DNA of 64,000 bases from Sphaerochaetaceae bacterium (GTDB lineage: Bacteria; Spirochaetota; Spirochaetia; Sphaerochaetales; Sphaerochaetaceae). A model generated the notes under the pieces. The model saw only the letters and a program-made list of their open reading frames with translations. It searched no databases and was not told the origin of the DNA. Location: the NCBI GenBank assembly GCA_024405015.1, contig JAKSPE010000005.1, positions 36,149-100,148 of the forward strand. Reading direction: 5' to 3'. The translations under genes and the position numbers were made by a program. Below are positions 12,520-59,890 of this stretch, piece after piece; position 1 is the first letter of the stretch; each line of letters opens with the position of its first letter.

Positions 12520-12535
12520 TTATTGTTTTAATGGT

Positions 12536-13885: not shown

Positions 13886-13899
13886 CAGAAAACAAAAAA

Positions 13900-15832: not shown

Positions 15833-15838
15833 GTGTTC

Positions 15839-16081: not shown

Positions 16082-16096
16082 AGTTTCCCTTTTTTA

Positions 16097-16160: not shown

Positions 16161-16212
16161 ACATAATAAAAAACTTGTAAGTTAATGCACTTACTTACAG
16201 AAGGGGAGAAAA

Positions 16213-16590: not shown

Positions 16591-16618
16591 TTTAGAAATT
16601 GTTCAAGGAGCAATGAAA

Positions 16619-17188
16619 ATGAAAAAATTATCAATTGTATTGGTTTTACTATTGATTGTCGGAGCTTTTGCTTTCTCTTCTGACGATTTTTACAAGTGCT
16701 CTAGTCTTATTGATAAGAAATTGGATAATTCCAAGGTCTCAATGATTCAGACATATTCTGCAAATCTTACAGAGCTTGAAAGATATAATCTTTATGAAGC
16801 TAATAAATCGTCCACCGGAGTTCCATTACTGTGTAACTTACTTCTTGGTGCTGGTATTGGATCTTACATACAGGGTGATACCGTTGGTGGAACTGTTTTC
16901 CTCTGCGGCGAATTGGCATCTGCTATTCTTTATGGTGCAAGTTATATGAGAATGGTTTTTGCGGAGACAGAATCAGAGTTTGAGAATGCTGCAGCCCAAG
17001 CTACAATTTGGAGTATAGCTCTTTTGGGTGTTCGAGTCGCAGAATGTATCAGACCTTTTACTTATGCAAAAGAGTATAATAAGCGACTTTCAAATGCTCT
17101 TTATGGAGTTCCATCAATAGCAGCTATACCAACCATCAATTCTGATGGACAAACTGGACTTATGCTGAGTGCAAGAATAGATTTGTAA
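16619..17188 (+). CDS. hypothetical membrane protein with signal peptide
   Basis: AAGGAG lies 8 nt upstream of ATG 16619. It has an N-terminal signal, and Gly-rich hydrophobic segments (LLLGAGIGSYIQGD, FLCGELASAILYG). No family assigned. Confidence 0.6.
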   Translation: MKKLSIVLVLLLIVGAFAFSSDDFYKCSSLIDKKLDNSKVSMIQTYSANLTELERYNLYEANKSSTGVPLLCNLLLGAGIGSYIQGDTVGGTVFLCGELASAILYGASYMRMVFAETESEFENAAAQATIWSIALLGVRVAECIRPFTYAKEYNKRLSNALYGVPSIAAIPTINSDGQTGLMLSARIDL

Positions 17189-17597
17189 ATAATTTTGTTT
17201 TCTAGGCTGAGAGGCTGCAACGTATGTTGTGGCCTCTTCTTTTATCTGGATCATACCCAGATAAAAAAACAGATGCTTGGGAGTGAAGAAGGTTCCCAAG
17301 CATCTCACACTAAAAGGAGGTATGAAAAAAACTGTTGCTCTGCCTAATTAATAGCAAGTACCGTGCCAACTTCTGTTTTTGGCCTGAAAAAATTTCAAAA
17401 CAGCAGTTTTTCATCCTACTTTTGCCTAAAATTGTCGTAACTCATTGTCTTTGGCCTTCTTCTGGGGTGTGCAGAAAATGCACAGATGTGAAGAAAATGA
17501 AATGGGTGTGAAATTTTTGCACACTGGTATGGTCTCCTGTCTTGACAGATTGGAATAAAAGGCAATTTGCAATATGCTAAGGACAACGGAGAATCCT

Positions 17598-18245
17598 ATG
17601 GACAAAGCATGTGTCATTTTCGATATGGATGGAACATTGATCGATTCAATGCCTTATTGGAACATCAGTGTGGAAGAGGTTGTCGCCAAGCGTGGAGTCA
17701 CCAAGATCCCAAAGGCATTGCGTGACAAGACTGTCGCAATGACCGTCATCGATTCCTGCAACCTGTTCATCAAGGAATTCGGTCTGGATTGCGATGCCCA
17801 ACAGATGATGGACGACGTCTACAAGATGATGGAGTACCACTATGTCCATGACGTACCGCTTAAGCCAGGTGTCCCGGAGTATCTTGAGGCTTTGAAGAAA
17901 AAGGGCATCAAGATGTGTACCGCCTCTGCCACCCGTGAGGACCAGCAGGCAATTGCGCTCAAGCGATTTGGAATCTATGACTATTTTATCGACACGGTCT
18001 CTGCCGAGCGAGTTGGTGTGAGTAAGAGCGATGGCCCTGACATTTACGACTATTGTGCAAAGCTCATGGGCTGTGACCGAACAAACGCTGCCGTCTTTGA
18101 GGATTCCTATGTTGCCGCAAAAACCGCAAAGGATGCCGGCTATTATGTTGTTGGCTGCTGTGATGAGGTCTCACAGGATACTTGGAAAGACCTGATTTCC
18201 GTGACCGACGAGCACTTTGAGGACTGGAGAACGCTTAATGCCTAG
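17598..18245 (+). CDS. HAD family hydrolase (beta-phosphoglucomutase/phosphatase-like)
   Basis: DMDGTLIDS motif I and a later FEDS..... motif. Start at MDKACVIFDMDG. Confidence 0.8.
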   Translation: MDKACVIFDMDGTLIDSMPYWNISVEEVVAKRGVTKIPKALRDKTVAMTVIDSCNLFIKEFGLDCDAQQMMDDVYKMMEYHYVHDVPLKPGVPEYLEALKKKGIKMCTASATREDQQAIALKRFGIYDYFIDTVSAERVGVSKSDGPDIYDYCAKLMGCDRTNAAVFEDSYVAAKTAKDAGYYVVGCCDEVSQDTWKDLISVTDEHFEDWRTLNA

Positions 18246-44849: not shown

Positions 44850-46244
44850 TTACTTTACTGCAGCCTGATTGTCGAAATAGTCTTTGTTCATCTTGACGAC
44901 TTCGTTGGAGAGGAGAATCAGACCAATGAGGTTAGGGATGATCATAAGACCGTTGAATGTGTCGGCAAGATCCCAAGCGAAGCCGAGTGTTGTGACGGAA
45001 CCCACAAATACGAACACAACCCACAGTGCTTTGATGACGACTTTGCTCTTCGGTCCGAAAATGAACTCTGCTGCACGCTCAGCGTATGTGTAGTAGCTGA
45101 TGATGCAGGAGAAGCCGAAGAGGATGACACAACCCAGACATACGATTCCACCGACGCTTCCCAGTGTAGCCTGGAAGGAGTGCATGGTAAGGACCGCACC
45201 GTCCAGACCCTCTGTGTTGTTCCACAGACCGGAAAGGACGATTGCCAGAGCGGTGATGGTACAGATGACAACTGTATCAAGGAAAACCTCAACAGGTGCC
45301 CAGATGGCCTGCTCGATCGGATCGTCGACCTGAGCGCCGCAGTGGATCATGGCTGCTGTTCCGAGACCTGCTTCGTTGGAGTAGATACCTCTTGCGAAAC
45401 CGTAGCGGATTGCGATGAAGATGGATCCGATTGCACCACCTGTGACAGCTCTAGGTGCAAATGCTGATTTGAAGATCAGAGCGATTGCACTTGGAACGTG
45501 GGTTATGTTGATGAGGATGATGAGAATTCCGCAGATGATGTAGGCTCCACCCATGAATGGGGAGATGACTTCACAGACGTGACCGATTCTCTTGATTCCA
45601 CCGAAGATAACGATTGCTGTAAGCACTGCAAGAACGGCACCGACGATCATTGGGTTGATTCCAACCTTGTCAGCGATTGTTGATGAGATTGTGTTACTGT
45701 CAACGATAGGTGAAATGACGAATGCGAATGGGAGGACGAGAACGGAGAAGAGAACTCCGAGCCATCTTGCATGAAGACCTTCGGAAAGGTAATACATGGC
45801 ACCACCGGAGACGGTTCCGTCTTCGTGGACCTGTCTGTACTTCATACCAAGGGCGATCTCGGCGAACTTTGTTGCCATTCCGACACAAGCGGCGAGAATC
45901 ATCCAGATGAGAGCTCCAGGACCTCCAGCAATGAGGGCTGTTGCAACACCGGCAATGTTTCCGGAACCGACGATTGCCGATACGGAGACCATTGCGGCCT
46001 GGAAACTGGTCAGCTCACCAGGTGCGGTTACAGTGTCCTTCTTCTTGAAAGCTTTGATGACGGTGTTCTTCCAAAGATATCCAGGTCTACGGAACTGTAG
46101 AAATCCCAAGCGGATGGTAAAGAACACACCCGTTCCGAAAAGGAGTACCAGAACAGGTACACCCCAGACGATTCCATTGATGAAATCGTTAGCAGCGACA
46201 ATGGCATTGCCTATTGTCTGAAAAAAAGCAGAAAAGGAATCCAT
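44850..46244 (-). CDS. alanine/glycine:cation (sodium) symporter, AGCS family
   Basis: 464-aa polytopic protein with GE.TSFQA...S.....G.GNI.GVA.A...GGPGA..WM, the AGCS signature. Confidence 0.9.
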   Translation of the reverse strand: MDSFSAFFQTIGNAIVAANDFINGIVWGVPVLVLLFGTGVFFTIRLGFLQFRRPGYLWKNTVIKAFKKKDTVTAPGELTSFQAAMVSVSAIVGSGNIAGVATALIAGGPGALIWMILAACVGMATKFAEIALGMKYRQVHEDGTVSGGAMYYLSEGLHARWLGVLFSVLVLPFAFVISPIVDSNTISSTIADKVGINPMIVGAVLAVLTAIVIFGGIKRIGHVCEVISPFMGGAYIICGILIILINITHVPSAIALIFKSAFAPRAVTGGAIGSIFIAIRYGFARGIYSNEAGLGTAAMIHCGAQVDDPIEQAIWAPVEVFLDTVVICTITALAIVLSGLWNNTEGLDGAVLTMHSFQATLGSVGGIVCLGCVILFGFSCIISYYTYAERAAEFIFGPKSKVVIKALWVVFVFVGSVTTLGFAWDLADTFNGLMIIPNLIGLILLSNEVVKMNKDYFDNQAAVK

Positions 46245-46507: not shown

Positions 46508-46560
46508 TTGACTAGAAACATTAAAAGATAGATACTAACTGTGTTTAGGTCTGACCTAAA
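46508..46560 (+). promoter_or_regulatory. candidate promoter plus 17-bp palindrome upstream of the six-module gene
   Basis: TTGACT at 46508-46513, a 17-nt spacer, GATACT at 46531-46536, then the perfect palindrome TTTAGGTC-T-GACCTAAA at 46544-46560. Confidence 0.35.
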
Positions 46561-46598
46561 TATCATTTTGGCTACTATTTTTTTAGGGAGATAAGAAA

Positions 46599-49550
46599 AT
46601 GAAGAAATTCATCGTTTTCGCTCTTGTCCTCGCTCTCGCAATGACATCCGTTTTCGCAATGGGTCTTGCTGAAGATATGAAGGCACAGGAAGCTGCAGCA
46701 GCTGCTGTCGTTGAGACTCCAGTTGTTGAAACAGTTGCTCCAGTTGTTGCTGGTCCTGCAACTTACACATTCGGAATGGGAATCACATTCGATGATGAAC
46801 AGTCCAACGACACAACAGCAGCTTACGATGCAGTTGTCGCAGCAGTCGTTCTCGACGCTGAGGGAAGAATCGTTGCAGTTCAGATCGATGACGCTCAGAA
46901 CAAGATGACAAAGGACGATGTCGACCCAGAGAAGACATTCAAGTCCAAGTATGAGCTCCAGTATGACTACAACATGGTCAAGTTCTCTGAGGCAACAAAC
47001 GAGTGGTTCGAGCAGGCAGCTGCATTCGAAGACTACTGCGCTGGCAAGACTGCTGCAGAGATTGCTGATCTCGCAACAAGAGTCAGAACAGAGGCTGAGC
47101 CACATCCAGGCTACGTCGTCACAGCTGACGAGGAGCTTTTCGCATCCTGCTCCATGTCCATCACAAGCTTCAAGGAAGCAGTCGTGAAGGCATGTGCAGA
47201 CACAAAGGCAAAGACATTCACAACAGATGCTCCATTCTGTGTCGGACTCAAGGTCAGCACAACAGCTGAGGAGTCAACAGATGAAGTCATCAAGATGTAC
47301 GCAAACTTCGGTGCAGTCGTCGTAGACGAGAACGGAGTCATCCTTGCTGCTCTCCTCGATGCAATCCAGCCACAGTTCAAGGTTGAGGATGATGCATTCA
47401 CATTCAAGGGCACAAAGAAGGAGCTCGAGTTCGGCTACAACATGGTCAAGTTCTCCGAGGCAACAAACGAGTGGTTCGAGCAGGCAGCAGCATTCGAGGA
47501 TTACTGTGCAGGTAAGACAGGTGCTGAGGTTGCAACACTCGCAACAAGAGTCAGAACAGCAGACGAGCCACATCCAGGCTACGTCGTCACAGCTGACGAG
47601 GAGCTTTTCGCTTCCTGTTCCATCCAGATTGTTGAGTTCAAGTCCGTCCTCGCACAGGCAGCCGGTGCTGAGCCAGTTGTTGAAGCAGTTGTTGAGGGAC
47701 CTGCAACATATACATTCGGAATGGGTATCACATTCAGCGATGAGCAGTCCAACGAGACAACAGCAGCATACGACGCAGTCACAGCAGCAGTCGTCCTCGA
47801 CGCTGAGGGAAGAATCGTTGCAGTTCAGATCGATGACGCTCAGAACAAGATGACAAAGGACGATGTCGACCCAGAGAAGACATTCAAGTCCAAGTATGAG
47901 CTCCAGTATGACTACAACATGGTCAAGTTCTCTGAGGCAACAAACGAGTGGTTCGAGCAGGCAGCTGCATTCGAAGACTACTGCGCTGGCAAGACTGCTG
48001 CAGAGATTGCTGATCTCGCAACAAGAGTCAGAACAGAGGCTGAGCCACATCCAGGCTACGTCGTCACAGCTGACGAGGAGCTTTTCGCATCCTGCTCCAT
48101 GTCCATCACAAGCTTCAAGGAAGCAGTCGTCAAGGCTTGCAACGATACAAAGGCAAAGACATTCACAACAGATGCACCATTCACAGTCGGACTCAAGATC
48201 AGCACAACAGCTGAGGAGTCAACAGACGAGGTCATCAAGATGTACGCCAACTTCGGTGCAGTCGTTGTAGACGAGAACGGCGTCATCCTTGCAGCACTTC
48301 TTGATGCCATCCAGCCACAGTACAAGGTCGAGGAAGAGGCATTCACATTCAAGGGAACAAAGAAGGAACTTGAGTTCGGTTACAACATGGTCAAGTTCTC
48401 CGAGGCTACAAACGAGTGGTTCGAGCAGGCAGCAGCATTCGAGGATTACTGTGTAGGTAAGACAGGTGCTGAGGTTGCAACACTCGCAACAAGAGTCAGA
48501 ACAGCTGACGAGCCACATCCAGGCTACGTCGTCACAGCTGATGAGGAGCTTTTCGCTTCCTGTTCCATCCAGATCGTTGAGTTCAAGTCTGTTCTCGCAC
48601 AGGCTGCTGGCGCTGAGGCTGTTGCTCCAGCTACATACACTCTCGGTATGGGAATCACATTCGATGATGAGCAGTCCAACGAGACAACAGCTGCTTACGA
48701 TGCAGTTGTCGCAACAGTCGTCCTCGATGCTGAGGGCAAGATCGTTGCAGTCCAGATCGATGACGCTCAGAACAAGATGACAAAGGACGATGTCGACCCA
48801 GAGAAGACATTCAAGTCCAAGTATGAGCTCCAGTATGACTACAACATGGTCAAGTTCTCTGAGGCAACAAACGAGTGGTTCGAGCAGGCAGCTGCATTCG
48901 AAGACTACTGCGCTGGCAAGACTGCTGCAGAGATTGCTGATCTCGCAACAAGAGTCAGAACAGAGGCTGAGCCACATCCAGGCTACGTCGTCACAGCTGA
49001 CGAGGAGCTTTTCGCATCCTGCTCCATGTCCATCACAAGCTTCAAGGAAGCAGTCGTCAAGGCTTGCAACGATACAAAGGCAAAGACATTCACAACAGAT
49101 GCTCCATTCTGCCTCGGTGTTGCAGTCAATACAAAGGCTGACGAGTCTACAGATGAAGTCATCAAGATGTATGCTGAGTTCGGTGCTGCAGTTGTTTCCG
49201 CTGATGGAACAGTTCTCGCTTGTCTGACAGATGCTATCCAGCCACAGTTCAAGGTTGAAGATGATGCATTCACATTCAAGGGCACAAAGAAGGAACTCGA
49301 GTTTGACTACAACATGGTCAAGTTCTCTGAGGCAACAAACGAGTGGTTCGAGCAGGCAGCTGCATTCGAAGACTACTGCGCTGGCAAGACTGCTGCAGAG
49401 ATTGCTGATCTCGCAACAAGAGTCAGAACAGAGGCTGAGCCACATCCAGGCTACGTCGTCACAGCTGATGAGGAGCTTTTCGCTTCATGCTCCATGCAGA
49501 TCACAGGCATGAAGGCTGTCATCTCCAAGGCTGCTAACAACGCCAACTAA
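46599..49550 (+). CDS. secreted six-module repeat protein (FMN_bind-like modules with A-S-C-S in place of S-G-A-T)
   Basis: GGGAG SD. Sec signal peptide (…MTSVFA/MG) with no lipobox. Six modules of 152-159 aa make up the rest of the protein. The gene ends 8 nt before apbE. Confidence 0.85.
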   Translation: MKKFIVFALVLALAMTSVFAMGLAEDMKAQEAAAAAVVETPVVETVAPVVAGPATYTFGMGITFDDEQSNDTTAAYDAVVAAVVLDAEGRIVAVQIDDAQNKMTKDDVDPEKTFKSKYELQYDYNMVKFSEATNEWFEQAAAFEDYCAGKTAAEIADLATRVRTEAEPHPGYVVTADEELFASCSMSITSFKEAVVKACADTKAKTFTTDAPFCVGLKVSTTAEESTDEVIKMYANFGAVVVDENGVILAALLDAIQPQFKVEDDAFTFKGTKKELEFGYNMVKFSEATNEWFEQAAAFEDYCAGKTGAEVATLATRVRTADEPHPGYVVTADEELFASCSIQIVEFKSVLAQAAGAEPVVEAVVEGPATYTFGMGITFSDEQSNETTAAYDAVTAAVVLDAEGRIVAVQIDDAQNKMTKDDVDPEKTFKSKYELQYDYNMVKFSEATNEWFEQAAAFEDYCAGKTAAEIADLATRVRTEAEPHPGYVVTADEELFASCSMSITSFKEAVVKACNDTKAKTFTTDAPFTVGLKISTTAEESTDEVIKMYANFGAVVVDENGVILAALLDAIQPQYKVEEEAFTFKGTKKELEFGYNMVKFSEATNEWFEQAAAFEDYCVGKTGAEVATLATRVRTADEPHPGYVVTADEELFASCSIQIVEFKSVLAQAAGAEAVAPATYTLGMGITFDDEQSNETTAAYDAVVATVVLDAEGKIVAVQIDDAQNKMTKDDVDPEKTFKSKYELQYDYNMVKFSEATNEWFEQAAAFEDYCAGKTAAEIADLATRVRTEAEPHPGYVVTADEELFASCSMSITSFKEAVVKACNDTKAKTFTTDAPFCLGVAVNTKADESTDEVIKMYAEFGAAVVSADGTVLACLTDAIQPQFKVEDDAFTFKGTKKELEFDYNMVKFSEATNEWFEQAAAFEDYCAGKTAAEIADLATRVRTEAEPHPGYVVTADEELFASCSMQITGMKAVISKAANNAN
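46752..49547 (+). repeat. in-frame tandem repeat: three super-units of about 930-945 bp, each with an A and a B half (6 modules)
   Basis: Module boundaries are A1 46752-47219, B1 47220-47696, A2 47697-48164, B2 48165-48623, A3 48624-49091 and B3 49092-49547. Blocks of more than 250 nt (for example from 46918, 47863 and 48790) are essentially identical at the nucleotide level. Confidence 0.9.
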
Positions 49551-49558
49551 TTGATGAT

Positions 49559-50746
49559 ATGCAAAGAAAGACAATAGTGTCGGGCATCGCCATTGTGGTG
49601 ATGCTCGGCATCCTTTCTATTACAGGTTGCACAAAGGCTGCCTCTGAAAAACCTTCAGAGGCAGTTTCTGCGTCTAAAGAACAGATTGTCGTGGCCGTTT
49701 CCGAGCCTGTGACATCTGCGGAAAAGACACAGCCTGTTGTGGAGAAGGAACCTGAAAAGCCTGTAAAGGAGACTGCCCCAGTGCAGAACCCAAAGGGCCG
49801 AGGTAAGGTCTATTACAATCTCTTTGATACTGTTTCCTATGTCTACAGCTATGCCGGAGACAGCGACGACAGATTCCTCGGAATCTGCGACCAGGTCTAC
49901 GACATTCTGAACGACTATCACATGATGTTTGACATCTACTATGAGTATTCTGGCGTCAACAATCTCAAAACCATCAACCTCAACGCTGGTGGAGAACCGA
50001 TTGCTGTGGACGCAAGGCTCATAAAGTTCCTTCAGTATGCAAAGGAACTTTATGAACTGACAGGCGGCGAGATGGACGTCATGATGGGTTCTGTTCTCTC
50101 TATCTGGCACGAGGCTCGAAACGCATCTGTCCCATATGTACCTTCCACGGAGAAACTGGAAGAGGCAAACAGATTCGTTGGATTCGACTACCTCGAGATA
50201 GATGAAGAGAATGGAACTGTAAGAATTACAGATTCCAGAGCATCACTTGATGTTGGTGCACTCGGAAAGGGCTATGCGACGGAGATGGCTGCAAGGTACC
50301 TTGAGAAAATCGGTGCTGAGCACTATGTCCTGAACATAGGAGGCAACATCCGCATCGTCGGCACAAAGGTCGATGGAAGTGGATGGGTGACAGGAATCCG
50401 AAATCCGAAGGACCCTGATAACTCATTCTCACTGAAGGTCAATATCAGTGATTGTGCATGTGTCACAAGTGGTAGCTATGAGCGATATTTCACCGTCAAT
50501 GGCGTGAAGTACCCTCATATTATCGATAAGGATACCCTGCAGCCTGCCCGTTATTATGAATCACTGACCGTCATCACAAAGGACAGCGGTCTTGCGGATG
50601 CCTTGTCTACCGCACTGTACTGCATGCCTTATGAGGATGGCCTGAAGCTTGTGGAAAGTCTGAAAGACGTGGGGTGCGTCTGGATCTTCTCAAACGGAAG
50701 TATCCGATATACTCCAAATCTGAAAGACGTCGTCATTAATGTCTGA
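49559..50746 (+). CDS. apbE: FAD:protein FMN transferase (ApbE/Ftp) lipoprotein
   Basis: Lipobox LSITGC, a long Pro/Glu/Lys linker, then the ApbE motifs DVGALGKGYA, TSGSYERYF, HIIDK.T and ADALSTAL. Confidence 0.9.
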   Translation: MQRKTIVSGIAIVVMLGILSITGCTKAASEKPSEAVSASKEQIVVAVSEPVTSAEKTQPVVEKEPEKPVKETAPVQNPKGRGKVYYNLFDTVSYVYSYAGDSDDRFLGICDQVYDILNDYHMMFDIYYEYSGVNNLKTINLNAGGEPIAVDARLIKFLQYAKELYELTGGEMDVMMGSVLSIWHEARNASVPYVPSTEKLEEANRFVGFDYLEIDEENGTVRITDSRASLDVGALGKGYATEMAARYLEKIGAEHYVLNIGGNIRIVGTKVDGSGWVTGIRNPKDPDNSFSLKVNISDCACVTSGSYERYFTVNGVKYPHIIDKDTLQPARYYESLTVITKDSGLADALSTALYCMPYEDGLKLVESLKDVGCVWIFSNGSIRYTPNLKDVVINV

Positions 50747-50783: not shown

Positions 50784-52076
50784 GTGCTTTTCAGTAAGAA
50801 GATTTCAGCAGTACATGTACCGCATTGCAAGTCCACACAGGACAAGCATTCCGTACGCATTGCACCACCTGAGTCTGTAACAATTCCTATGTCAATGCAC
50901 TCTGGTGCACCAGCAGTTCCAGTTGTAGCTGTCGGTGACCACGTTTACATTGGCCAGCTGATCGCAAAAGAGGGAGAGGGCAGAGTCTCTTCTCCAATCC
51001 ATGCATCAATCTCCGGAACTGTTTCAGCTGTTGGTGAGAAGTCCATCTCCATCAAGTCTGATGGAAAGATGGAGATCGATCCTCAGATGAAGGCTCCAAA
51101 GCTCGAGACTTTGGATGACTTCCTGGATGGTTGCCGCAAGAGCGGTATCGTCGGTCTCGGTGGAGCAGCATATCCTCTTCACGGTAAGTGGGAAGCTGTC
51201 AGAAAGAACAAGATTGAGACTGTTCTCATCAACGGTGCTGAGTGTGAGCCATATTGTACAGCTGACAACAGAACCATGGTTGAGGACTATGATCATATCA
51301 AGCAGGGTATCGAGATTCTCAAGAGATTCGTAGGTGCAAAGGAGTATGTCATCGGTATCGAGGCAAACAAGCCAGAAGCCATCAAGCTCCTTACAGACCT
51401 CTTCAAGGATGACAGCTCTGTCATCGTCAAGTCCCTTGAGTCCGTCTACCCACAGGGTGCAAAGCAGGTTCTTCTTTGGAACGCAACCGGAAAGGTTGTC
51501 GCTGCTGGTCAGAGACTTGCATCCCTCGGTGTCATCATCACAAACGTCACAACACTCGCAAAGATGGCTCTCTACTTCGAAACCGGTATGCCACTTGTTG
51601 ACAAGTGTGTTTCTGTTGACGGTTCTGCCATCAAGGAGCCAAAGAACATCATCGCTCCAATCGGAACCAGCTACGGTTACTGCATTGAGCAGTGTGGTGG
51701 TTTCAGCTGTGAGCCTGGTCGTGTCATTGAGGGTGGTCCTATGATGGGTCGCACAATCGCATCTCTCGATGAGCCTGTCATCAAGGCTACCAACGGTCTT
51801 GTTGCCATGAGTCAGGCCGATTCCGTCATCCTTGAGCCAACTGCATGTCTGCATTGCGGAAAGTGCGTTGAGGCATGTCCACTGGATCTCAACCCAGTTG
51901 CATACTCCGATGCTCTTGATATCGATGATGAGGACAAGAGAGAGCTGATTCTCAAGAAGGAAGATGTCCCACAGTGCATGGAGTGCGGATGCTGCGCATA
52001 CGTATGTCCAGCTCACAGACCTCTCGTCGCAAACAACAGGGCTGCTAAGAAGTTCCTGAGAGGAAGGAGAAAGTAA
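50784..52076 (+). CDS. rnfC: Rnf complex subunit C
   Basis: AAGGAGG lies 8 nt upstream of GTG 50784. GLGGA..P, NGAECEPY and two 4Fe-4S motifs (CLHCGKCVEACP, CMECGCCAYVCP). Confidence 0.9.
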   Translation: MLFSKKISAVHVPHCKSTQDKHSVRIAPPESVTIPMSMHSGAPAVPVVAVGDHVYIGQLIAKEGEGRVSSPIHASISGTVSAVGEKSISIKSDGKMEIDPQMKAPKLETLDDFLDGCRKSGIVGLGGAAYPLHGKWEAVRKNKIETVLINGAECEPYCTADNRTMVEDYDHIKQGIEILKRFVGAKEYVIGIEANKPEAIKLLTDLFKDDSSVIVKSLESVYPQGAKQVLLWNATGKVVAAGQRLASLGVIITNVTTLAKMALYFETGMPLVDKCVSVDGSAIKEPKNIIAPIGTSYGYCIEQCGGFSCEPGRVIEGGPMMGRTIASLDEPVIKATNGLVAMSQADSVILEPTACLHCGKCVEACPLDLNPVAYSDALDIDDEDKRELILKKEDVPQCMECGCCAYVCPAHRPLVANNRAAKKFLRGRRK

Positions 52077-53017
52077 TGGCAAACAACTATAATCTCATTA
52101 CAGTATCATCACCTCATTTCCACAACGGTTCATCCGGAAGAAGAATCATGCTCGATGTCATCATCGCTCTGATTCCTGCTGCAATCGCTGCTGTGGTGAT
52201 CTTTGGTATGAAGTCCCTTGCTCTGATGGCAACCTGTATCATTGCTGCAATCGCCGCAGAGTCCCTGTTTGACGTCATCGTCAAGAAAAAGAATACCGTT
52301 GGTGACCTTTCAGCTATCGTTACAGGTCTTCTTCTTGCACTGAACCTCGGTACAGAAGTCGCCCTCTGGGAAGCTGCAGTCGGTAGCGTATTCGCAATCG
52401 TATTCGTCAAGTGCATCTTCGGTGGCCTTGGAAAGAACTTCGCAAACCCAGCAATCACAGGTCGTGTCTTCATGATCATCGCCTTCGGTTCCGTCACATC
52501 ATTCGTCAATCCGAAGTGTGTAGAGCTCGTCTCATCTGCTACACCTCTTGCAAACCTTGCACAGGGTGCAATGGATCAGCTCCCAACTGTTGGACAGATG
52601 CTTCTGGGTCTCCATGGTGGTACAATCGGTGAGACATGTATCATCGCTCTTGTCCTCGGATGGGTCTATCTCTCAGTCAGAAAGGTCATCAAGTGGTACG
52701 TCCCAGCTGCATTCATCGCAACAGTCTTTGTTCTGTTCCTGGTCTTCACTGGATCTCCAGTGGTCGCATTCTATGAGATTCTCTCCGGTGGTCTTTTCCT
52801 CGGTGCAATCTTCATGGCAACCGACTACGTCTCAACTCCTATCACAGTCAAGGGTAAGGTCGTCTTCTGCATCTGCTGTGGTATCATCACATTCATCATT
52901 CGTAAGTTCTGTGCTCTTCCAGAAGGTGTCTCATTTTCCATCCTGATCATGAACATCCTCACTCCATGGGTAGAGAAGCTTACTCACAATGTTCCACTTG
53001 ACAGGAGGGGAAAGTAA
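52076..53017 (+). CDS. rnfD: Rnf complex subunit D
   Basis: Polytopic NqrB/RnfD family protein. The SSATPL segment corresponds to the known (S/G)GAT flavinylation site. Confidence 0.9.
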   Translation: MANNYNLITVSSPHFHNGSSGRRIMLDVIIALIPAAIAAVVIFGMKSLALMATCIIAAIAAESLFDVIVKKKNTVGDLSAIVTGLLLALNLGTEVALWEAAVGSVFAIVFVKCIFGGLGKNFANPAITGRVFMIIAFGSVTSFVNPKCVELVSSATPLANLAQGAMDQLPTVGQMLLGLHGGTIGETCIIALVLGWVYLSVRKVIKWYVPAAFIATVFVLFLVFTGSPVVAFYEILSGGLFLGAIFMATDYVSTPITVKGKVVFCICCGIITFIIRKFCALPEGVSFSILIMNILTPWVEKLTHNVPLDRRGK

Positions 53018-54966
53018 TGGCAACCAAGAAAGCTACACAGTTAATTCTCCTCATTGCAACAGTCATCGTCTTCGCAGGCATCCTTGTTGCACTGAACACA
53101 GTAACCGGCCCAAAGATCCTCGCAAACCAGAACAGTGCCGTATTCGAGCCACTGTTCGCGGTCATGCCTGAGGCAAAGGGATTCACAGCTCTTGATCTTG
53201 CTGCAGCTGATACAGTCAAGGCTGCATGGAAGGAGACAAGCGGCAAGGGTTACGTCATCCAGCTCGCTACCAACAAGGGTTACACACACGAGGATATCGA
53301 TATCACAGTTGCTATCGCAGCTGACGGAAAGATCTCTGCTGTAAACCTTGAGTCCTATCCAGAGACAAAGGACTTCGGTAAGGAAACCTACCCAGCAACC
53401 TACATCGGACAGGATTCCACTCTTGCAAATGTCCAGCTCGTAGCTGGTGTCACATTCTCCTCCAAGGCATTCAAGGGTGCCATCGAGGATGCATTTGCAC
53501 TTCTCATTGACAACGGCCTTATCGGTGCTGGTGTCAAGGAGGCAAGCCAGGTCATTACAGAGATGATTCCAGTCGTGAACGCAGACATGTGTTCCGAGAC
53601 AGGCATGCTCCAGGCTAAGGAAGTTGAGGTCAAGGGTGCCAAGAAGGCTTGGGCTTCCGACAGCGGAAAGTCTGTTGCATTCTGGCTCGAGAACGGTGGT
53701 GACTTCCTTGCAATCGTTGACAACACTGGAAAGGTCACAGCATATGACCTCGATGGTAATGACGTCACATTCGCAAAGAACCCAGTCGTCACACTTGCTG
53801 AAGCAGCTTATGACGAGTACCAGAGCGTCCTCAATGCCAAGGATATTGAAGAGATCATGTCTCTCATCCCTGGTGCTGTCGGATTCAGAAAGCTCGCCGT
53901 TGAGGCTCCAGACACCGTCAAGAGCGTTTGGGCAGAGACAAGCGGTCTCGGTTATGTCGTCAGAAGCGCAACAAACAAGGGCTTCACACACGAGTACATC
54001 AACCTCTCTGTTGCATTCACAGCAGATGGTAAGATCTCCAACGTCGTTCTCGAGTCCTACCCAGAGACAAGAGACTTCGGTGCTGATTATCCAGCAACTT
54101 ACATCGGTCAGGATTCCACACTCTCTGGTGTCCAGATCATCGCTGGTGTCACATACTCATCCACAGCATTCAAGGGTGCAGTCAATGATGCATTCACAGT
54201 TCTCACCTCAAACGGTCTCGTTGTTGAGGCAGTCAAGGAGCCAAGCCAGGTCATCGATGAGATGATTCCAGAGAAGGCTACTGCACTGATCAACCCACAG
54301 GGCATCTTCCAGGGTGAAGAGATTGAGGTTAAGGCTGACGGCGTCGTCAAGGCTTGGAGAAACCCAGCCAAGAGCGTTGCCGCTTACTGGATGAACAATG
54401 CTGACGGTGACTTCCTTGTTCTTGCAAACGCATATGGCTGTGCAACCGTCTATGACCTTAAGGGTAACGATGTCACAGGCTCTCAGAAGGCTCTTTCTGA
54501 TGCAGCTCTTGCTAACAGCACATCTGTTCTTGCCAAGGCAACATCCAAGGAGATTGCAAAGGTCACAAAGCTTCTCCCAGCAGGTTCTACTGCTGTTGAG
54601 GTCGCTTGCGACATCTACACATCTGTTGCTGACATCGTCAAGGCCGAGACAGCGGACGGCGTCTACTATGGTTTCCTCTGCCACACTTATGGCTTCGGTA
54701 ACCACGAGATGACCTACTACGTTGCAATCGATCCAAACGGAAAGATCTCTGGTCTTAACACAAGTACACTCATCATCGAAGCTGAGTATTACCCACAGGC
54801 ATCCGTCAAGAAGGCTGACTATGTCGCAGCCCTTACAGGTGTCACAGCAGACTGGACAGGAGAGGAGGCACTGATTGCCAATGCAACTCTCACAACACAG
54901 TCCACACAGACTGCTCTCAACGAGGCATTCGCAGCCTTCGAGCTTCTCACAGGAGGTGCAAACTAA
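53017..54966 (+). CDS. rnfG: Rnf complex subunit G, expanded (649 aa, three FMN_bind-like domains)
   Basis: N-terminal TM helix and the usual position between rnfD and rnfE. The FMN_bind-like C-terminal segments are VAGVTFSSKAFKGAIEDAF (Thr146), IAGVTYSSTAFKGAVNDAF (Thr379) and IANATLTTQSTQTALNEAF (Thr624). Confidence 0.8.
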   Translation: MATKKATQLILLIATVIVFAGILVALNTVTGPKILANQNSAVFEPLFAVMPEAKGFTALDLAAADTVKAAWKETSGKGYVIQLATNKGYTHEDIDITVAIAADGKISAVNLESYPETKDFGKETYPATYIGQDSTLANVQLVAGVTFSSKAFKGAIEDAFALLIDNGLIGAGVKEASQVITEMIPVVNADMCSETGMLQAKEVEVKGAKKAWASDSGKSVAFWLENGGDFLAIVDNTGKVTAYDLDGNDVTFAKNPVVTLAEAAYDEYQSVLNAKDIEEIMSLIPGAVGFRKLAVEAPDTVKSVWAETSGLGYVVRSATNKGFTHEYINLSVAFTADGKISNVVLESYPETRDFGADYPATYIGQDSTLSGVQIIAGVTYSSTAFKGAVNDAFTVLTSNGLVVEAVKEPSQVIDEMIPEKATALINPQGIFQGEEIEVKADGVVKAWRNPAKSVAAYWMNNADGDFLVLANAYGCATVYDLKGNDVTGSQKALSDAALANSTSVLAKATSKEIAKVTKLLPAGSTAVEVACDIYTSVADIVKAETADGVYYGFLCHTYGFGNHEMTYYVAIDPNGKISGLNTSTLIIEAEYYPQASVKKADYVAALTGVTADWTGEEALIANATLTTQSTQTALNEAFAAFELLTGGAN

Positions 54967-55544
54967 TGATGGAAAAGGATATTATCAGCAAGAATCCTGT
55001 AATGGTTCTTTTTCTTGGAGCCTGTCCTGCTCTGGCTGCAACAACCACAGCAACAGCTTCCGTTGGAATGGCAGTTTCCGTTTGTCTGATTCTGGTTCTC
55101 TCATCAGTTCTCATGTCCCTCATGAGAAAGGGTGTTGGTGATGCCATCAGACTTCCTCTTGCAATCGTCATCAGCGCAGGATTTGCTTCCATCGCACAGA
55201 TGGTCATGGCAGCTTACCTTCCTAAGGTCTATGCAATGCTTGGTGTTTATCTTGCAATCGTTGCAGTTAACGCAATGGTCGTGACACACCAGCAGAACAC
55301 AGCTTCCCAGGAAGGCTTCGGAGCTTCTCTGAAGCAGGCTGTCATCACAGGAATCGAGTTCTGCGCTCTCGTGATTGTCATGGGAATCGTCAGAGAGATT
55401 CTCGGCAACGGAACATGTTTCGGTGCAAAGGTCCCATTCTTCGCAAACCACACAATCGCAGTTTTCGGTAAGGCAGGCGGTGCATTCATCGTATTCGCAA
55501 TTCTCCTTGCAGTTGCCGGATGCTTCAGAAAGGAGGCAAAGTGA
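54966..55544 (+). CDS. rnfE: Rnf complex subunit E
   Basis: NPV.V..LG.CPALA.TT is the RnfE/NqrD signature. 192 aa. Confidence 0.9.
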   Translation: MMEKDIISKNPVMVLFLGACPALAATTTATASVGMAVSVCLILVLSSVLMSLMRKGVGDAIRLPLAIVISAGFASIAQMVMAAYLPKVYAMLGVYLAIVAVNAMVVTHQQNTASQEGFGASLKQAVITGIEFCALVIVMGIVREILGNGTCFGAKVPFFANHTIAVFGKAGGAFIVFAILLAVAGCFRKEAK

Positions 55545-56095
55545 TGTCAGCTAAGGAAGTTATCGCAATCATGTTTGCCTGCATTCTCGCAAACAACTAC
55601 GTATTCCAGAATTTCTTCGGTGTTGAGGCTGTCGCTCTCGATTCTGAGAAGGGTATCAAGTGCATGCTCTTCAACGGACTCACAGTCACAGCAGTCCTCA
55701 TCGTCTCCACACTCATCACATGGCCAATCAACGCCATGCTCGCCAGTGCAAGCTACCTTCAGACACTTGTCTTCGCAATCGTCACAACAGCTGTTGTCTA
55801 CGTTGCAGACTTCGTCGCCAAGAAGGTTTGCAAAGAGAACAAGTGTTCTGTCCTTTCCATCGCCATCAACAGCGTCGTCATGGGTGCATGCCTTGTAAAC
55901 GCTGCTAACGGTTACGGATTTGGAACTTCTGTTCTTGCATCTGTCGGTGTCGGACTCGGATACCTTCTGGCAACATTCGTTGTCGCTGGTGTCAGAGAAA
56001 GAGTCAATGAGAAGTTCATTCCAAAGGCATGGAGAGGCGCTCCAATCCTTGCTGCTGAGATGGCTATCATCGCTCTTACACTGTTCGCTCTCTGA
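55544..56095 (+). CDS. rnfA: Rnf complex subunit A
   Basis: ILANNYVFQNFFG... is an RnfA/NqrE-like six-TM protein. Its start overlaps the rnfE stop (ATGA). Confidence 0.85.
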   Translation: MSAKEVIAIMFACILANNYVFQNFFGVEAVALDSEKGIKCMLFNGLTVTAVLIVSTLITWPINAMLASASYLQTLVFAIVTTAVVYVADFVAKKVCKENKCSVLSIAINSVVMGACLVNAANGYGFGTSVLASVGVGLGYLLATFVVAGVRERVNEKFIPKAWRGAPILAAEMAIIALTLFAL

Positions 56096-56469
56096 TGAAG
56101 AGTACTAGCAAAAAGGCACGGATCCTGAGGGATCTGTGCCTGATTTTTGCATTGGTCATCCTTGGTTTGGCTTCTCTTGTGATCATGCGAAGCCGAGGAA
56201 CCGAGGGTGCCTATGCGATTGTGCAGGTCAATGGCATTGAGATTTCACGCCATTCCTTGCATATGGAAGGAACAATTCCAGTAAACGGTGGTACCAATCT
56301 CCTGGAGATCAAGGGAAACCGTGCAAGACTTGTTGATGCAGATTGTCCGGACAAGCTCTGTGTGAGACAGGGTTGGATCCAGTACACCGGACAGTGCATC
56401 ACCTGCCTCCCGAACAAACTTACTGTTACGATTTCGGGTGGCGACGATTCAGTTGAACTGATTCTGTAG
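56095..56469 (+). CDS. NusG domain II-containing protein (DUF1312)
   Basis: N-terminal TM helix, then ...VDADCPDKLCVRQGWI...CITCLPNKL, typical of DUF1312/NusG_II. Confidence 0.8.
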   Translation: MKSTSKKARILRDLCLIFALVILGLASLVIMRSRGTEGAYAIVQVNGIEISRHSLHMEGTIPVNGGTNLLEIKGNRARLVDADCPDKLCVRQGWIQYTGQCITCLPNKLTVTISGGDDSVELIL

Positions 56470-56477
56470 AGGAATAG

Positions 56478-57008
56478 ATGGAAACGAGAAAGATCGCACA
56501 GATGGGACTTCTGATTGCCCTGGCAATGATCCTGTCCTATGTGGAAAGCAGAATACCAGCCTTTGTGGCCATACCTGGAATCAAGATGGGTCTGGCAAAC
56601 ATTGTCGTGGTTTTCGCTTTGTACCGACTGGGGTTCAAAGAGGCTCTTGTCATCACAGCGCTTCGAGTCGTTTTGGCATCTCTGCTTTTCGGATCGGTTC
56701 TTTCCATGGCCTATTCGGCCTCTGGAGCACTGCTTTCACTTGTCGGAATGACACTTCTGAAGAAAAGCAGACTTTTCGGTACGGTTGCGGTCAGCGTAAC
56801 AGGTGGAGTGCTTCATAATCTTGGACAGATTGCCACAGCTTGTCTCATCCTTGAGACCAATGCAATTGCATATTACATACCGTTTCTCATCATCAGCGGT
56901 GTTGTCACAGGAATTGTAATCGGCTTGGCTGCAGCTATAGTGATCAACAGACTCGATCCTGACAGAAAGGTCAAGGACGACGAGGAAGATGATGAAGAAG
57001 GAGTATGA
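56478..57008 (+). CDS. Gx transporter family protein (Hpre_diP_synt_I; ECF S-component-like clan)
   Basis: RKIAQMGLLIALAMILSYVE...IPG.K.GLANIV.......G is typical of PF07456. It has an acidic C-terminal tail. Confidence 0.8.
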   Translation: METRKIAQMGLLIALAMILSYVESRIPAFVAIPGIKMGLANIVVVFALYRLGFKEALVITALRVVLASLLFGSVLSMAYSASGALLSLVGMTLLKKSRLFGTVAVSVTGGVLHNLGQIATACLILETNAIAYYIPFLIISGVVTGIVIGLAAAIVINRLDPDRKVKDDEEDDEEGV

Positions 57009-57460
57009 AAATGGCTGAAGATAAGTTTTCACCAACCGGAATGAACGGAAAAGACAAGAACTTCTCACCAAAGTTCTTTGAGACAGAAGGCAAGATGGGT
57101 GCTTTCCAGAAGGGAATGCACTGGGTAACCTCTGTTCTTGAGACAATCCTTGCAATTGTGCTTGTTCTTGGTATTCTGTTCTCATTCGTACAGATGCCTG
57201 AAAAGCTTCTGGACATCATCAGCGGTGGTTCCAGCACATTGCTTGAGCTTGTCGAGTACATTGCTCTCATCATCATCGCCATCGAGCTCATCCATGTGAT
57301 CATGGTGCAGAACCTCGATTCCGTCATTGAGATTCTCATGATGGCATTTACTCGAGAACTTGTCATCAAGGAGTGGGCTATGTGGGAGCTTCTGCTTGGT
57401 GTTCTCGTCATTGCCGGACTTTTCGCCATCAAGAAATATCTGCTCAGCAAGGAAGATTGA
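57005..57460 (+). CDS. PsiE-like (phosphate-starvation-inducible E family) membrane protein
   Basis: Four-helix membrane protein. LLELVEYIALIIIAIELIHVI resembles the PsiE family. It overlaps the upstream stop (ATGA). Confidence 0.6.
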   Translation: MKMAEDKFSPTGMNGKDKNFSPKFFETEGKMGAFQKGMHWVTSVLETILAIVLVLGILFSFVQMPEKLLDIISGGSSTLLELVEYIALIIIAIELIHVIMVQNLDSVIEILMMAFTRELVIKEWAMWELLLGVLVIAGLFAIKKYLLSKED

Positions 57461-57468
57461 CATCTGCA

Positions 57469-58326
57469 ATGCCACTGATTGAAGTCGACAATGTAACATT
57501 CTCATACCCTGCCAAAGATGGTGGGGTCAATGCACTGACCGGTCTGAACCTGAAGGTTGAGGCCGGTTCGTTTGTTACTGTCCTCGGCTCAAACGGAAGC
57601 GGAAAGTCCACGTTGGGAAAGCTTCTGAATGCTCTTCTTGTCCCACAGAGCGGACGCGTGGTTGTCGATGGTCTTTGCTCTTCTGACAAGGCCAATGTAT
57701 ATGAGATCCGAAAAAGGGTGGGAATCGTATTCCAGAATCCGGACAACCAGATTGTCGCAGATACAGTGGAAGACGACGTTGCTTTCGGGCCTGAGAACAT
57801 TGGTCTTGCACTTGATCAGATGAAGGTTCGCATCGCTGACAGCCTTGCATCTACTGGCATCTCTGACCTTGCTTTGACTAAGCCGGAAAAGCTTTCCGGA
57901 GGCCAGAAACAGCGAGTTGCCATCGCAGGTGTCATGGCGCTGGAGCCGAAGTGCATCGTTTTGGATGAGTCCACATCCATGCTCGATCCAAAGGGTAGGA
58001 CAGAGGTCCTAGGTGCCATCCAGAAACTTCGAATGGAGAAGGGTATCGCTGTGATTCTCATTACCCATTACATGGAGGAGGCCGTGGATGCCGACTATGT
58101 CTATGTTCTGGATAAGGGAAGTGTGGCGTTGGAAGGAACGCCTTCTGAGGTGTTTTCCGATGCAGATACTCTGGAAGCCCTTGGCCTTGAACTTCCTCCT
58201 GCTGTTAAAGTATGGCAGATGCTTCGTGCAAAAGGGGTTGTCGTTTCCGTCCCTGTTCTGACCGAAGAGGACCTGGTCTCTGCGCTTTCCAAGCTGATGC
58301 GTCAGAAAGGGGGTGCCTCATGCTGA
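57469..58326 (+). CDS. ecfA1: ECF transporter ATPase component
   Basis: GSNGSGKSTL, LSGGQKQRVAIAG and LDESTSMLD motifs. The N-terminus (LIEVDNVTFSY) is EcfA1-like. Confidence 0.85.
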   Translation: MPLIEVDNVTFSYPAKDGGVNALTGLNLKVEAGSFVTVLGSNGSGKSTLGKLLNALLVPQSGRVVVDGLCSSDKANVYEIRKRVGIVFQNPDNQIVADTVEDDVAFGPENIGLALDQMKVRIADSLASTGISDLALTKPEKLSGGQKQRVAIAGVMALEPKCIVLDESTSMLDPKGRTEVLGAIQKLRMEKGIAVILITHYMEEAVDADYVYVLDKGSVALEGTPSEVFSDADTLEALGLELPPAVKVWQMLRAKGVVVSVPVLTEEDLVSALSKLMRQKGGASC

Positions 58327-59078
58327 AGGATGTGACCCTCGGACGCTACTATCCAATCGAATCTCCACTTCATGAGCTGGATCCTAGAACCAAGATGGTT
58401 GCGATTCTCATTTACATTGTGACCACCTTTCTTGCCTCTACACCAATTACCTGTGCACTGACATTTCTTGTTCTTTGTCTTCTGATCCACCTTTCCAAAG
58501 TGCCGGTACGATACATGGTCAAAGGTCTCCGGGCGGTAGTCATCATTGTTGTGATTACTGATCTGATCAACATTTTCTTTGTGGAGAATGGCCTTTGGAA
58601 GGCTTTCATTGTGACGCTTCGAATGATTGAGATTGTCCTTGGTTCGAACATCCTTTCCCTTACCACTAAGCCTAAAACCATGGCAGCCGGAATCGAGAAA
58701 GGCTTGGGCTGGATGAAGAGACTCCATGTTCCAGTGCACGATTTTGCCACAATGATCTCCATTGCCTTCCGTTTCCTTCCGATTCTGACGCAGGAAGCCG
58801 ACAAGGTCATGGAAGCCCAGAAGGCACGTGGTGCTGATTTTGAAAGCGGAAATCTGCTGCGTCGAGCAAAGGCTCTGATGCCGATCCTGATTCCTCTGTT
58901 TGTGTCCGCATTCCGAAGAGCAGATGAACTTGCGCTTGCTATGGATAGCCGTCTCTATGGTTCTGGAGAGCCTACCAGTTTGCACCCTCTGAAGTACAAC
59001 ACCTCCGATGGCGTTTCCTATCTTCTTGCTTTTGCCTACCTGGCACTGGTGATTGTTCTCAAGGTGGTGCATGTATGA
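58320..59078 (+). CDS. ecfT: ECF transporter transmembrane (T) component
   Basis: LGRYYP..SPLH.LDPR.K and A...ARG are EcfT/CbiQ motifs. It overlaps both flanking ATPase genes. Confidence 0.85.
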   Translation: MLKDVTLGRYYPIESPLHELDPRTKMVAILIYIVTTFLASTPITCALTFLVLCLLIHLSKVPVRYMVKGLRAVVIIVVITDLINIFFVENGLWKAFIVTLRMIEIVLGSNILSLTTKPKTMAAGIEKGLGWMKRLHVPVHDFATMISIAFRFLPILTQEADKVMEAQKARGADFESGNLLRRAKALMPILIPLFVSAFRRADELALAMDSRLYGSGEPTSLHPLKYNTSDGVSYLLAFAYLALVIVLKVVHV

Positions 59079-59890
59079 TTGAAATCAGAGATCTTTGCTA
59101 CCGTTACGATGTAGGTACCCCTTTTGAGAAGGTCGCTGTGCAGAATGTGTCATTCACCATTGAGGATGGAGCATTTCTTGGTATCGCTGGAAGCACAGGA
59201 AGCGGAAAGTCCACACTCATCAAACATCTGAATGGTCTACTTAGGCCGACATCCGGTACGGTTCTGCTCAATGGAGAGGATATCTTCGCATCGACCTATG
59301 ATCGAATCGCCCTTCGTGGAAAAGTGGGTCTTGTGTTTCAGTATCCGGAGTACCAGCTCTTTGAGGAGACTGTCCTTCGCGATGTGATGTTTGGTCCTAA
59401 GAACATGGGACTTTCCGACAAGGATGCAAAGCAGAGAGCAAAGGATGCCCTTTCGCTTGTCGGTCTTGGCAAAGAGTATTACAAAAGATCTCCATTTGCC
59501 CTCTCTGGAGGTGAAAAGCGCAGAGTCGCAATTGCTGGAATGCTTGCCATGCAGCCGCAGGTTCTGGTTCTTGATGAACCTGCAGCTGGTCTTGATCCGA
59601 GAATGCACAACGAAATCTTCAGCCTTCTGAAGCGTCTGAACGAAGAGGGTACCACCATCGTTGTCGTGTCTCACAGCATGGAAGACATTGCCCAGTATTG
59701 CACCACAATGGCTCTTATGGACAACGGAAGGCTTGTGGACTTTGGAAAACCTGCAGAGGTGTTCGCCAAAGACCATGTGTCCAAGCCTTTTGCTGCAAGA
59801 GTTGCCCAGATGCTTGGTGACTTCGGTTGTGATCTTTCCGGCGTCTGCACCATTGAGGATCTTGTGGAGCGAATCTGCAAAGAGATGTGA
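59075..59890 (+). CDS. ecfA2: ECF transporter ATPase component
   Basis: Y..GTPFEK.A...VSF.IE.G.F.GI.G.TGSGKSTLI.HLNGLL.PTSG is EcfA2-like, with LSGGEKRRVAIAG. Confidence 0.85.
   Translation: MIEIRDLCYRYDVGTPFEKVAVQNVSFTIEDGAFLGIAGSTGSGKSTLIKHLNGLLRPTSGTVLLNGEDIFASTYDRIALRGKVGLVFQYPEYQLFEETVLRDVMFGPKNMGLSDKDAKQRAKDALSLVGLGKEYYKRSPFALSGGEKRRVAIAGMLAMQPQVLVLDEPAAGLDPRMHNEIFSLLKRLNEEGTTIVVVSHSMEDIAQYCTTMALMDNGRLVDFGKPAEVFAKDHVSKPFAARVAQMLGDFGCDLSGVCTIEDLVERICKEM

Follow-up and report, generated by a model that had tools for sequence, protein, structure and literature searches.

What is the protein encoded by the gene that heads an apbE-rnf operon in a Sphaerochaetaceae bacterium, and why does it lie directly beside the gene for a flavin transferase? 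The gene is a single open reading frame (ORF) of 983 amino acids (aa) with an ATG start, found at positions 46599-49550 (+) in the ORF listing of a 64-kb stretch of DNA from contig JAKSPE010000005.1; this whole stretch is referred to here as the window, and aa numbers refer to the 983-aa, six-module protein. An earlier note, made from the sequence alone, had suggested that the modules resemble FMN_bind domains, which carry covalently bound flavin mononucleotide (FMN), with the motif A-S-C-S in place of S-G-A-T. We consider it probable that the product is exported and acts as a multi-flavin electron carrier, with three A-B units in tandem, in each of which two divergent FMN_bind domains, most likely of the FMN-bind2 type, form a rigid pair. 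The homology, the register of the acceptor site, the conservation of Ser or Thr at the acceptor, the two-domain packing in the structural model and the apbE neighbourhood are demonstrated by computation, and covalent attachment of flavin to the modules by the neighbouring ApbE is, judging from the sequence, most likely.

How is the protein built? The proposed layout, a signal peptide followed by six modules of ~155 aa in the order A-B-A-B-A-B, each of them closed by E-E-L-F-A-S-C-S, is borne out by the ORF and the module boundaries, and comprises the following features:

46599..49550 (+), six-module protein gene, 983 aa, predicted hexa-flavinylated extracytoplasmic electron carrier (ORF, module boundaries, homology and gene context)
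46599..46658 (+), Sec-type signal peptide, aa 1-20 (MKKFIVFALVLALAMTSVFA), no lipobox Cys (read by eye; relatives carry a lipobox here)
46659..46751 (+), Ala/Val/Glu/Pro-rich linker, aa 21-51 (variable low-complexity stretch in the alignment of relatives)
46752..47210 (+), module A1, aa 52-204, A-S-C-S at aa 182-185, predicted acceptor Ser185, codon 47151-47153 (boundaries, AlphaFold2 model, hhalign)
47211..47696 (+), module B1, aa 205-366, predicted acceptor Ser341, codon 47619-47621 (boundaries, A1-B1 model)
47697..48155 (+), module A2, aa 367-519, predicted acceptor Ser500, codon 48096-48098 (boundaries, 97% protein identity to A1)
48156..48623 (+), module B2, aa 520-675, predicted acceptor Ser656, codon 48564-48566 (boundaries, 96% protein identity to B1)
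48624..49082 (+), module A3, aa 676-828, predicted acceptor Ser809, codon 49023-49025 (boundaries)
49083..49547 (+), module B3, aa 829-983, predicted acceptor Ser965, codon 49491-49493 (boundaries, 76-80% identity to B1/B2)

Read by eye, the N-terminus (MKKFIVFALVLALAMTSVFA, followed by MG) resembles a Sec signal peptide, as had been proposed, and its cleavage site one for signal peptidase I; it is without a lipobox Cys, while most relatives have L-x-x-C. The A modules start at about aa 52, 367 and 676 with the pattern xPATYT[FL]GMG and the B modules at aa 205, 520 and 829 with KTFTTDAPF. FASCS occurs six times (aa 181, 337, 496, 652, 805 and 961), which places the proposed acceptor Ser at residues 185, 341, 500, 656, 809 and 965. 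Tandem Repeats Finder reports a period of 468 nucleotides (nt) and 5.4 copies. The three A modules share 97% of their residues (95% at the DNA level) and B1 and B2 share 96%, with B3 at 76-80% to either and A against B at 55-62%; these high A/A and B/B identities point to a recent tandem amplification of the A-B unit and not to chance, and by its sequence the array is a recent tandem duplication of this unit. With repeats that are 95% identical, the number of copies may be affected by the assembly, and the exact 983-aa protein is recorded in one assembly only (GCA_024500545.1). The C-terminal tail of B3 resembles the tail of single-unit relatives. Long antisense ORFs also run inside the gene (46575-49445, minus strand), for example at 48219-49445 (408 aa) and 47274-48050 (258 aa); they are rich in Cys and Leu, repeat at the period of the gene itself and seem to arise from the repeat and its codon composition rather than to be genes.

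Are the modules FMN_bind domains (PF04205)? A profile of the modules has a sole match in the PDB, 2kzx_A (E 1e-4), and a family member with an SGAT-type site aligns to residues 14-110 of 2KZX, its DADLASGATIYMGSF opposite DAISGATIKVKKF. Borshchevskiy et al. 2015 (PMC4348036) count 2KZX among the members of PF04205; a fragment of it scores 24.9 bits against Pfam FMN_bind (cut-off 22 bits), and six of its 21 database relatives have a precomputed PF04205 match (two are named FMN-binding protein). When the module alignment is compared with the 2KZX family by hhalign, the probability is 95.5% (E 1.6e-8, 97 columns), with lfAsCSIsI..f..av.kA of the modules paired with aIsGatIhV..FfeLA.kAL, and module A1 alone still reaches 76.7% (E 2.1e-5) in the identical register. 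The modules gave no hhalign match to the RnfG of the window, used as a single sequence. With phmmer, a canonical FMN_bind domain fused to a family member finds 8P2B, RnfG and NqrC in the PDB and misses 2KZX, from which we conclude that PF04205 is heterogeneous. The matches to 2KZX and the hhalign results thus speak for the proposal that the modules are divergent FMN_bind domains, despite the negative Pfam searches described further below, and we regard the modules as divergent FMN_bind homologues, a view supported by computation.

Canonical FMN_bind domains (one to three) are fused upstream of the A-B unit in some relatives (P0147, P0237, P0197, P0228, P0176 and P0143), and the FMN_bind matches found in relatives fall on these separate domains and not on the A or B modules. 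Fusions of the A-B unit seen elsewhere in the family are to Big_2 plus Redoxin/AhpC (P0164, L088:6001-7872), to LRR_5 plus dockerin, to DUF4430 and to three canonical FMN_bind domains (relatives P0164, P0193, P0113 and P0143).

Does the A-S-C-S motif occupy the flavinylation site? The earlier note had aligned it by eye on S-G-A-T, with Ser at the position of the FMN-accepting Thr, and the hhalign comparison with the 2KZX family confirms this, the last S of ASCS falling on the T or S of SGAT or SGAS. Site frequencies were taken from 672 distinct aligned modules, drawn from database relatives and from 80 genome loci. At the first position (Ala in the window) Ala accounts for 85% and Ser for 11%; at the second (Ser in the window) Ser for 53% and Gly for 36%; at the third (Cys in the window) Cys for 74% and Val for 23%; and at the fourth, the acceptor (Ser in the window), Thr for 55% and Ser for 45%, so that a hydroxyl residue is present in 100% of modules. 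The Cys that had been called invariant is indeed found in all six modules of the window protein, but across the family it gives way to Val in about a quarter of modules, as these figures show. Nor is it foreign to ApbE substrates, as the earlier note had it, since Cys or Val is also found at this position in proteins that Pfam recognises as FMN_bind. Among representatives at 50% identity AGCT is the commonest motif, followed by ASCS, ASVT, ASCT, SSVT and SGCT, with few AGAT or SGAT, and some members keep an exact DLASGAT; through this series (AGCT, ASCS, ASVT, SGCT, AGAT, SGAT) the family motif grades into the canonical one. On the aligned sequences, the family-wide site is A-[SG]-[CV]-[ST] with an invariant hydroxyl acceptor.

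Similar variants are found in recognised FMN_bind proteins. The sites of the 2KZX family include AGVT, AGVS and SGAS, and a motif scan of RnfG from related operons gives AGVT 33 times, SGAT 29, TGAT 15, AGAT 14 and AGCT 7 (counts from a regular expression, a few of which may be off-site). According to a 2025 ApbE review (PMC12052999), published mutagenesis has shown that G-to-A and A-to-V exchanges still allow ~50% flavinylation, that an Asp-to-Ala exchange has minor effects only, and that a Ser acceptor is tolerated with a 10-55% loss of flavinylation.

How are the modules arranged in space? An AlphaFold2 model of the A1-B1 pair, built with a 79-sequence alignment, shows one compact body with a predicted local distance difference test score (pLDDT) of 96.9 and a predicted template-modelling score (pTM) of 0.93, and the A-B pair is therefore modelled as packing into one rigid unit. 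Module A1 alone (pLDDT 94.6) is modelled as three long strands, helices and then the site loop, which is placed between helix 127-132 and the final helix 138-149 of that model. Foldseek searches of the A1-B1 pair against the PDB returned only insignificant matches to major histocompatibility complex (MHC), T-cell receptor (TCR) and porin-like structures; these weak matches are platform-like folds, with a sheet under helices.

How widespread is this protein, and what company does it keep? The family comprises 1630 clusters at 50% identity (E<=1e-3) and is common in gut and rumen Clostridia, Erysipelotrichia and spirochaetes. Its members are for the most part lipoproteins with one A-B unit and a length of 330-400 aa, and among the 150 best representatives module counts are mostly two, several times four and twice six (the window protein, which is P0121 among the family representatives, and P0124). 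Pfam FMN_bind misses the modules, so members are annotated as hypothetical; the named members that we saw are called 'hypothetical protein' or are named after a fused DUF4430 domain only. The closest relatives are labelled Spirochaetales or Sphaerochaetaceae, and several loci of 63-73% identity lie in bins titled Bacteroidaceae, Selenomonadaceae, Eggerthellaceae and Muribaculaceae that look mislabelled.

We compared the gene neighbourhood in the 80 loci, which come from species-representative genomes of Oscillospiraceae, Ruminococcaceae, other Clostridia, Erysipelotrichia, Sphaerochaetaceae and Candidatus Ornithospirochaeta. In 78 of them apbE lies directly downstream on the same strand, and in the other two the contigs end too early. 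In the window the gap is 8 nt, as the earlier note had stated (the stop codon ends at 49550 and the ATG of apbE is at 49559). About 69 of the 80 loci continue with rnfCDGEA, after which genes for a NusG_II protein and a PF07456 protein come as a rule. Where Rnf is absent or encoded in a separate divergent operon, the family gene and apbE still lie side by side (L006, L014, L061, L067, L069, L085 and L087). In the window, the genes downstream and a possible promoter upstream are as follows:

46508..46536 (+), promoter-like site TTGACT-17-GATACT, ~60 nt 5' of the ATG (consensus scan; shuffled sequence is no poorer in such sites)
49559..50746 (+), ApbE flavin transferase, the predicted modifying enzyme and a lipoprotein, with ITGC as its lipobox close to the N-terminus (Pfam ApbE, E 8.5e-63)
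50784-52076 (+), rnfC (Pfam)
52076-53017 (+), rnfD, carrying the site S-S-A-T-P-L (Pfam, motif scan)
53017..54966 (+), rnfG, 649 aa, with an internal duplication (Pfam FMN_bind in two stretches, E 2.7e-17)
54966-55544 (+), rnfE (Pfam Rnf-Nqr)
55520-56095 (+), rnfA (Pfam Rnf-Nqr)
56095-56469 (+), NusG_II-domain protein, probably EetA-like by position (Pfam)
56478-57008 (+), PF07456 protein, EetB homologue (Pfam)
57373..59890 (+), genes of an energy-coupling factor (ECF)-type transporter: ABC_tran, CbiQ (ECF-T), ABC_tran (Pfam)

Against the NCBIfam model for FAD:protein FMN transferase (FAD, flavin adenine dinucleotide) the ApbE of the window scores 105.6 bits (E 2.4e-30), far under the 498-bit equivalog cut-off. 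The RnfG of the window has A-G-V-T at aa 143-146 and 376-379, both inside Pfam FMN_bind domains, and a possible third site, A-N-A-T, at aa 621-624. Its residues 39-264 align with 273-497 at 53% identity, and at 649 aa it is longer than the RnfG of relatives (391-437 aa). It thus appears, from sequence comparison, to have gained an extra FMN_bind unit in this genome; with the duplications in the six-module protein, this means that both periplasmic flavin carriers of the operon have been lengthened here. Taken together, the sequences of this one operon predict nine or ten flavinylation sites.

The promoter-like site sits in the divergent intergenic region beside a Na:Ala symporter gene (44850-46244, minus strand) and is no more than a candidate operon promoter. 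A 151-aa ORF without a Pfam match (57005-57460, +) comes after the EetB-like gene and before that of the first ECF ATPase, and one of the compared loci (L004) has a gene of equal size in the same position, also without a Pfam match (15670-16125). A role of the six-module protein as the substrate-binding lipoprotein of the downstream ECF/ABC (ATP-binding cassette) genes was dropped, because ECF systems use membrane S components and no substrate-binding protein family matched. Further away in the window, G+C content is 0.39-0.42 at 1-2000 and 12001-18000 and ~0.49 elsewhere, and these two stretches may be acquired or otherwise distinct.

What might the protein do? In the mechanism that we propose, the six-module protein would be exported via Sec, and the EetB-like and ECF proteins encoded in its operon would probably export the FAD, the ECF genes probably powering this export by analogy with the Listeria system (PMC9973259). 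The lipoprotein ApbE would then attach FMN from FAD, through a phosphoester bond, to the last Ser of each A-S-C-S (Ser185, 341, 500, 656, 809 and 965). Each A-B pair would form a rigid two-flavin unit, and the three units would be joined by short Ala/Glu/Pro/Val linkers. The resulting six-flavin chain could relay electrons singly between the periplasmic flavins of Rnf, which would be those of the duplicated RnfG and of RnfD, also a flavinylated subunit, and a further acceptor or donor, and its role would be that of PplA in the Listeria extracellular electron-transfer locus.

Is Rnf really the partner? The modules could be flavinylated and serve another extracytoplasmic sink, such as peroxide or oxygen detoxification or a soluble acceptor, with Rnf merely sharing the ApbE and FAD-export genes. 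We see this as possible though not favoured. The family gene and apbE occur as a pair without Rnf (L006, L014 and L087), and in one relative, P0164, a Redoxin/AhpC domain is part of the protein. In two loci (L006 and L088) the pair adjoins genes for a flavodiiron protein and rubredoxin, neighbours that hint at an oxidative-stress electron sink in some lineages. On the other hand, the family gene heads an operon that runs straight into rnfCDGEA in the great majority of loci (~69 of 80), and the window protein and RnfG are both enlarged by duplication.

Several results weigh against our reading of a flavinylated FMN_bind protein that works with Rnf. Suggested in the earlier note as a check, hmmscan against PF04205 was negative: the 983-aa protein has no FMN_bind match in Pfam at E<=1, and 31 single modules have none even at E<=10. 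NCBIfam models recognise neither the six-module protein nor any of the 31 single modules. (Matches to tRNA_synt_1c_R1 and RimP in Pfam and NCBIfam were below cut-offs and were set aside as noise.) With a nine-sequence alignment of compact FMN_bind domains the hhalign match is weak (38%, P 3.4e-4), in the same register. All six window modules read E-L-F-A-S-C-S and not the canonical D-x-x-[ST]-G-A-[ST], with Glu for Asp at -6, no Gly at -2 and no Ala at -1. The structural comparison with FMN_bind proteins, also suggested before, found none of them in the Foldseek top 50 of the module model, and IscU scaffolds rank first (template-modelling score (TM) 0.40-0.49, E 0.02-0.1, probability up to 0.99). 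As regards the electron path through Rnf, a search of the whole window for an rnfB-like ORF (CxxCxxCxxxC) found none; an RnfB-like ORF lies beside rnfA in four of the compared loci (L061, L067, L069 and L085), in which Rnf forms a separate divergent operon. Finally, we know of no family member that has been shown experimentally to carry a flavin.

Could the modules then be degenerate FMN_bind domains that are no longer flavinylated, the protein being a non-covalent flavin or quinone binder, a docking partner or scaffold for ApbE or RnfG, or a repetitive surface antigen? Such an explanation would account for a motif that departs from the canonical one at three of four fixed positions and for the blindness of Pfam to the domain, and one relative of 2KZX is named 'major membrane immunogen'. 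We nevertheless think it quite unlikely, as the acceptor is Ser or Thr in every one of the 672 modules while the neighbouring positions vary, the exact DLASGAT is retained by some members, the RnfG proteins of the same operons show the same non-canonical variants, and the adjacency to apbE is essentially invariant. The weakest rival, an IscU/NifU-like scaffold fold in which the conserved Cys would be a ligand of a metal or Fe-S cluster, has in its favour the top Foldseek matches of the single-module model (1wfz, 5wkp_H and others) and the Cys-Ser that IscU has at the start of its last helix, but is extremely improbable, given that the E-values are only 0.02-0.1, that hhalign of the module profile with E. 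coli IscU gives 0.5%, that the modules have no counterparts of the other two IscU Cys ligands, that their sole Cys is replaced by Val in 23% of cases and that the protein is exported. NifU_N had no Pfam match in the whole protein or in 31 single modules, and IscU was rejected as a functional assignment for its absent Cys ligands and its 0.5% in hhalign. The IscU-first ranking itself was obtained with module A1 (46752-47210), and sequence profiles give no sign of a relation; judged from the models, FMN_bind and IscU may share an ancient fold topology, or the likeness may be a coincidence.

If the modules are flavinylated, as we favour, a more daring picture can be drawn, which we find rather doubtful: the six-flavin protein and the duplicated RnfG might form a periplasmic flavin wire, through which an Rnf complex without RnfB would send NADH-derived electrons outward, to an acceptor in the periplasm or outside the cell, and not to or from ferredoxin, with the near-universal Cys or Val beside the acceptor residue tuning the flavin potentials into a downhill chain. 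Bolder still is the speculation that the Cys is linked to the flavin by a second contact, covalent or of the charge-transfer type; nothing here speaks for it or against it.

What does this analysis add? It provides a sequence bridge from the modules to PF04205, a family-wide A-[SG]-[CV]-[ST] site with an invariant hydroxyl, a fixed position of the gene directly 5' of apbE, and a parallel expansion of RnfG in this genome. Surveys of ApbE substrates that are based on PF04205 probably under-count, and the first gene of many apbE-rnf operons has probably been missed. If confirmed by experiment, A-[SG]-[CV]-[ST] could be used as a candidate ApbE site, and a profile for annotating the family could be built from the present alignments. 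A protein with six sites and its adjoining cognate ApbE would also be a handy construct for studying the sequence tolerance of ApbE and multi-flavin electron transfer.

How, finally, does the window protein compare with known systems? With lipoproteins of the 2KZX/3O6U type the modules share the Y-x-M-V...E-W-x-E-Q-A...E-x-Y helix, a G-H before the site and I-x-V-x-x-F after it; the lipoprotein signal of the relatives and the site variants AGVT and AGVS are found there too. In contrast to these lipoproteins, which have one domain of ~130 aa that Pfam detects, the modules of the window protein are of greater length, come as duplicated A and B types and escape Pfam.

A second comparison is with Listeria monocytogenes, where the extracytoplasmic PplA is flavinylated at two sites by FmnB (an ApbE-type enzyme) and is encoded with eetA, eetB and ECF-T (PMC9973259). 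The PF07456 family corresponds to EetB, which in Listeria is the FAD-binding S component of an ECF-type exporter supplying FmnB with FAD (PMC9973259). Rivera-Lugo et al. 2023 (PMC9973259) report co-localisation of eetB with apbE for 2,169 genomes and with Rnf for 572 genomes of Clostridia. In gene content the window operon resembles this locus, with an ApbE, an EetB homologue and ECF genes. It differs in that PplA has Ndh2 and demethylmenaquinone as donor and a lipid anchor, whereas the window has RnfCDGEA and a protein with six predicted sites and no lipobox.

Extracytoplasmic proteins with up to 13 ApbE sites have been described and proposed to move electrons over longer distances, and some RNF clusters have a multi-flavinylated RnfG (Meheust et al., eLife 2021, PMC8238504; Tong et al., BBA Adv 2023, PMC10339131). 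The RnfG of the window, with at least two sites, is like those of such clusters. In contrast to the window family, the multi-flavinylated proteins that have been characterised biochemically use compact FMN_bind domains (8P2A, 8P2B), and surveys that count Pfam FMN_bind domains would, we infer, have missed the window family.

The closest parallel is found in the study by Huang, Meheust, Barquera & Light (mSystems 2024, PMC11334425), in which FMN_bind is split into a compact FMN-bind1 and an FMN-bind2 of ~160 aa. There, FMN-bind2 domains occur in even numbers, have insertions relative to FMN-bind1 and pack sheet-to-sheet into a pseudo-symmetric two-flavin unit, the published evidence being a structural model and not biochemistry. 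The exemplars, found by BLAST, are NTW96865.1 (Erysipelotrichaceae, 2x), for which no InterPro entry is listed, and WP_312031774.1 (Hujiaoplasma nucleasis, 6x). The window modules agree in length (153-162 aa), in their even number of six, in the arrangement in A-B pairs and in the modelling of a pair as one confident unit (pTM 0.93); the window family likewise has relatives in Erysipelotrichaceae, and a 6x protein is already listed there. The A-[SG]-[CV]-[ST] motif, the position 5' of apbE and the link to Rnf operons, by contrast, go unmentioned in the accessible part of the paper. A cluster look-up gave 'hypothetical protein' only, a second homologue search, started from an Anaeroplasmatales member, gave no named match, and neither brought up the FMN-bind2 exemplars. 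That the window family is FMN-bind2, matched by description and not by the exemplar sequences, we regard as very likely. A paired FMN-bind2 subtype that includes a 6x protein was thus published in 2024, which makes the novelty of the window protein lower than the earlier note supposed, and the protein is probably an unusually large member of a domain type already described in that year.

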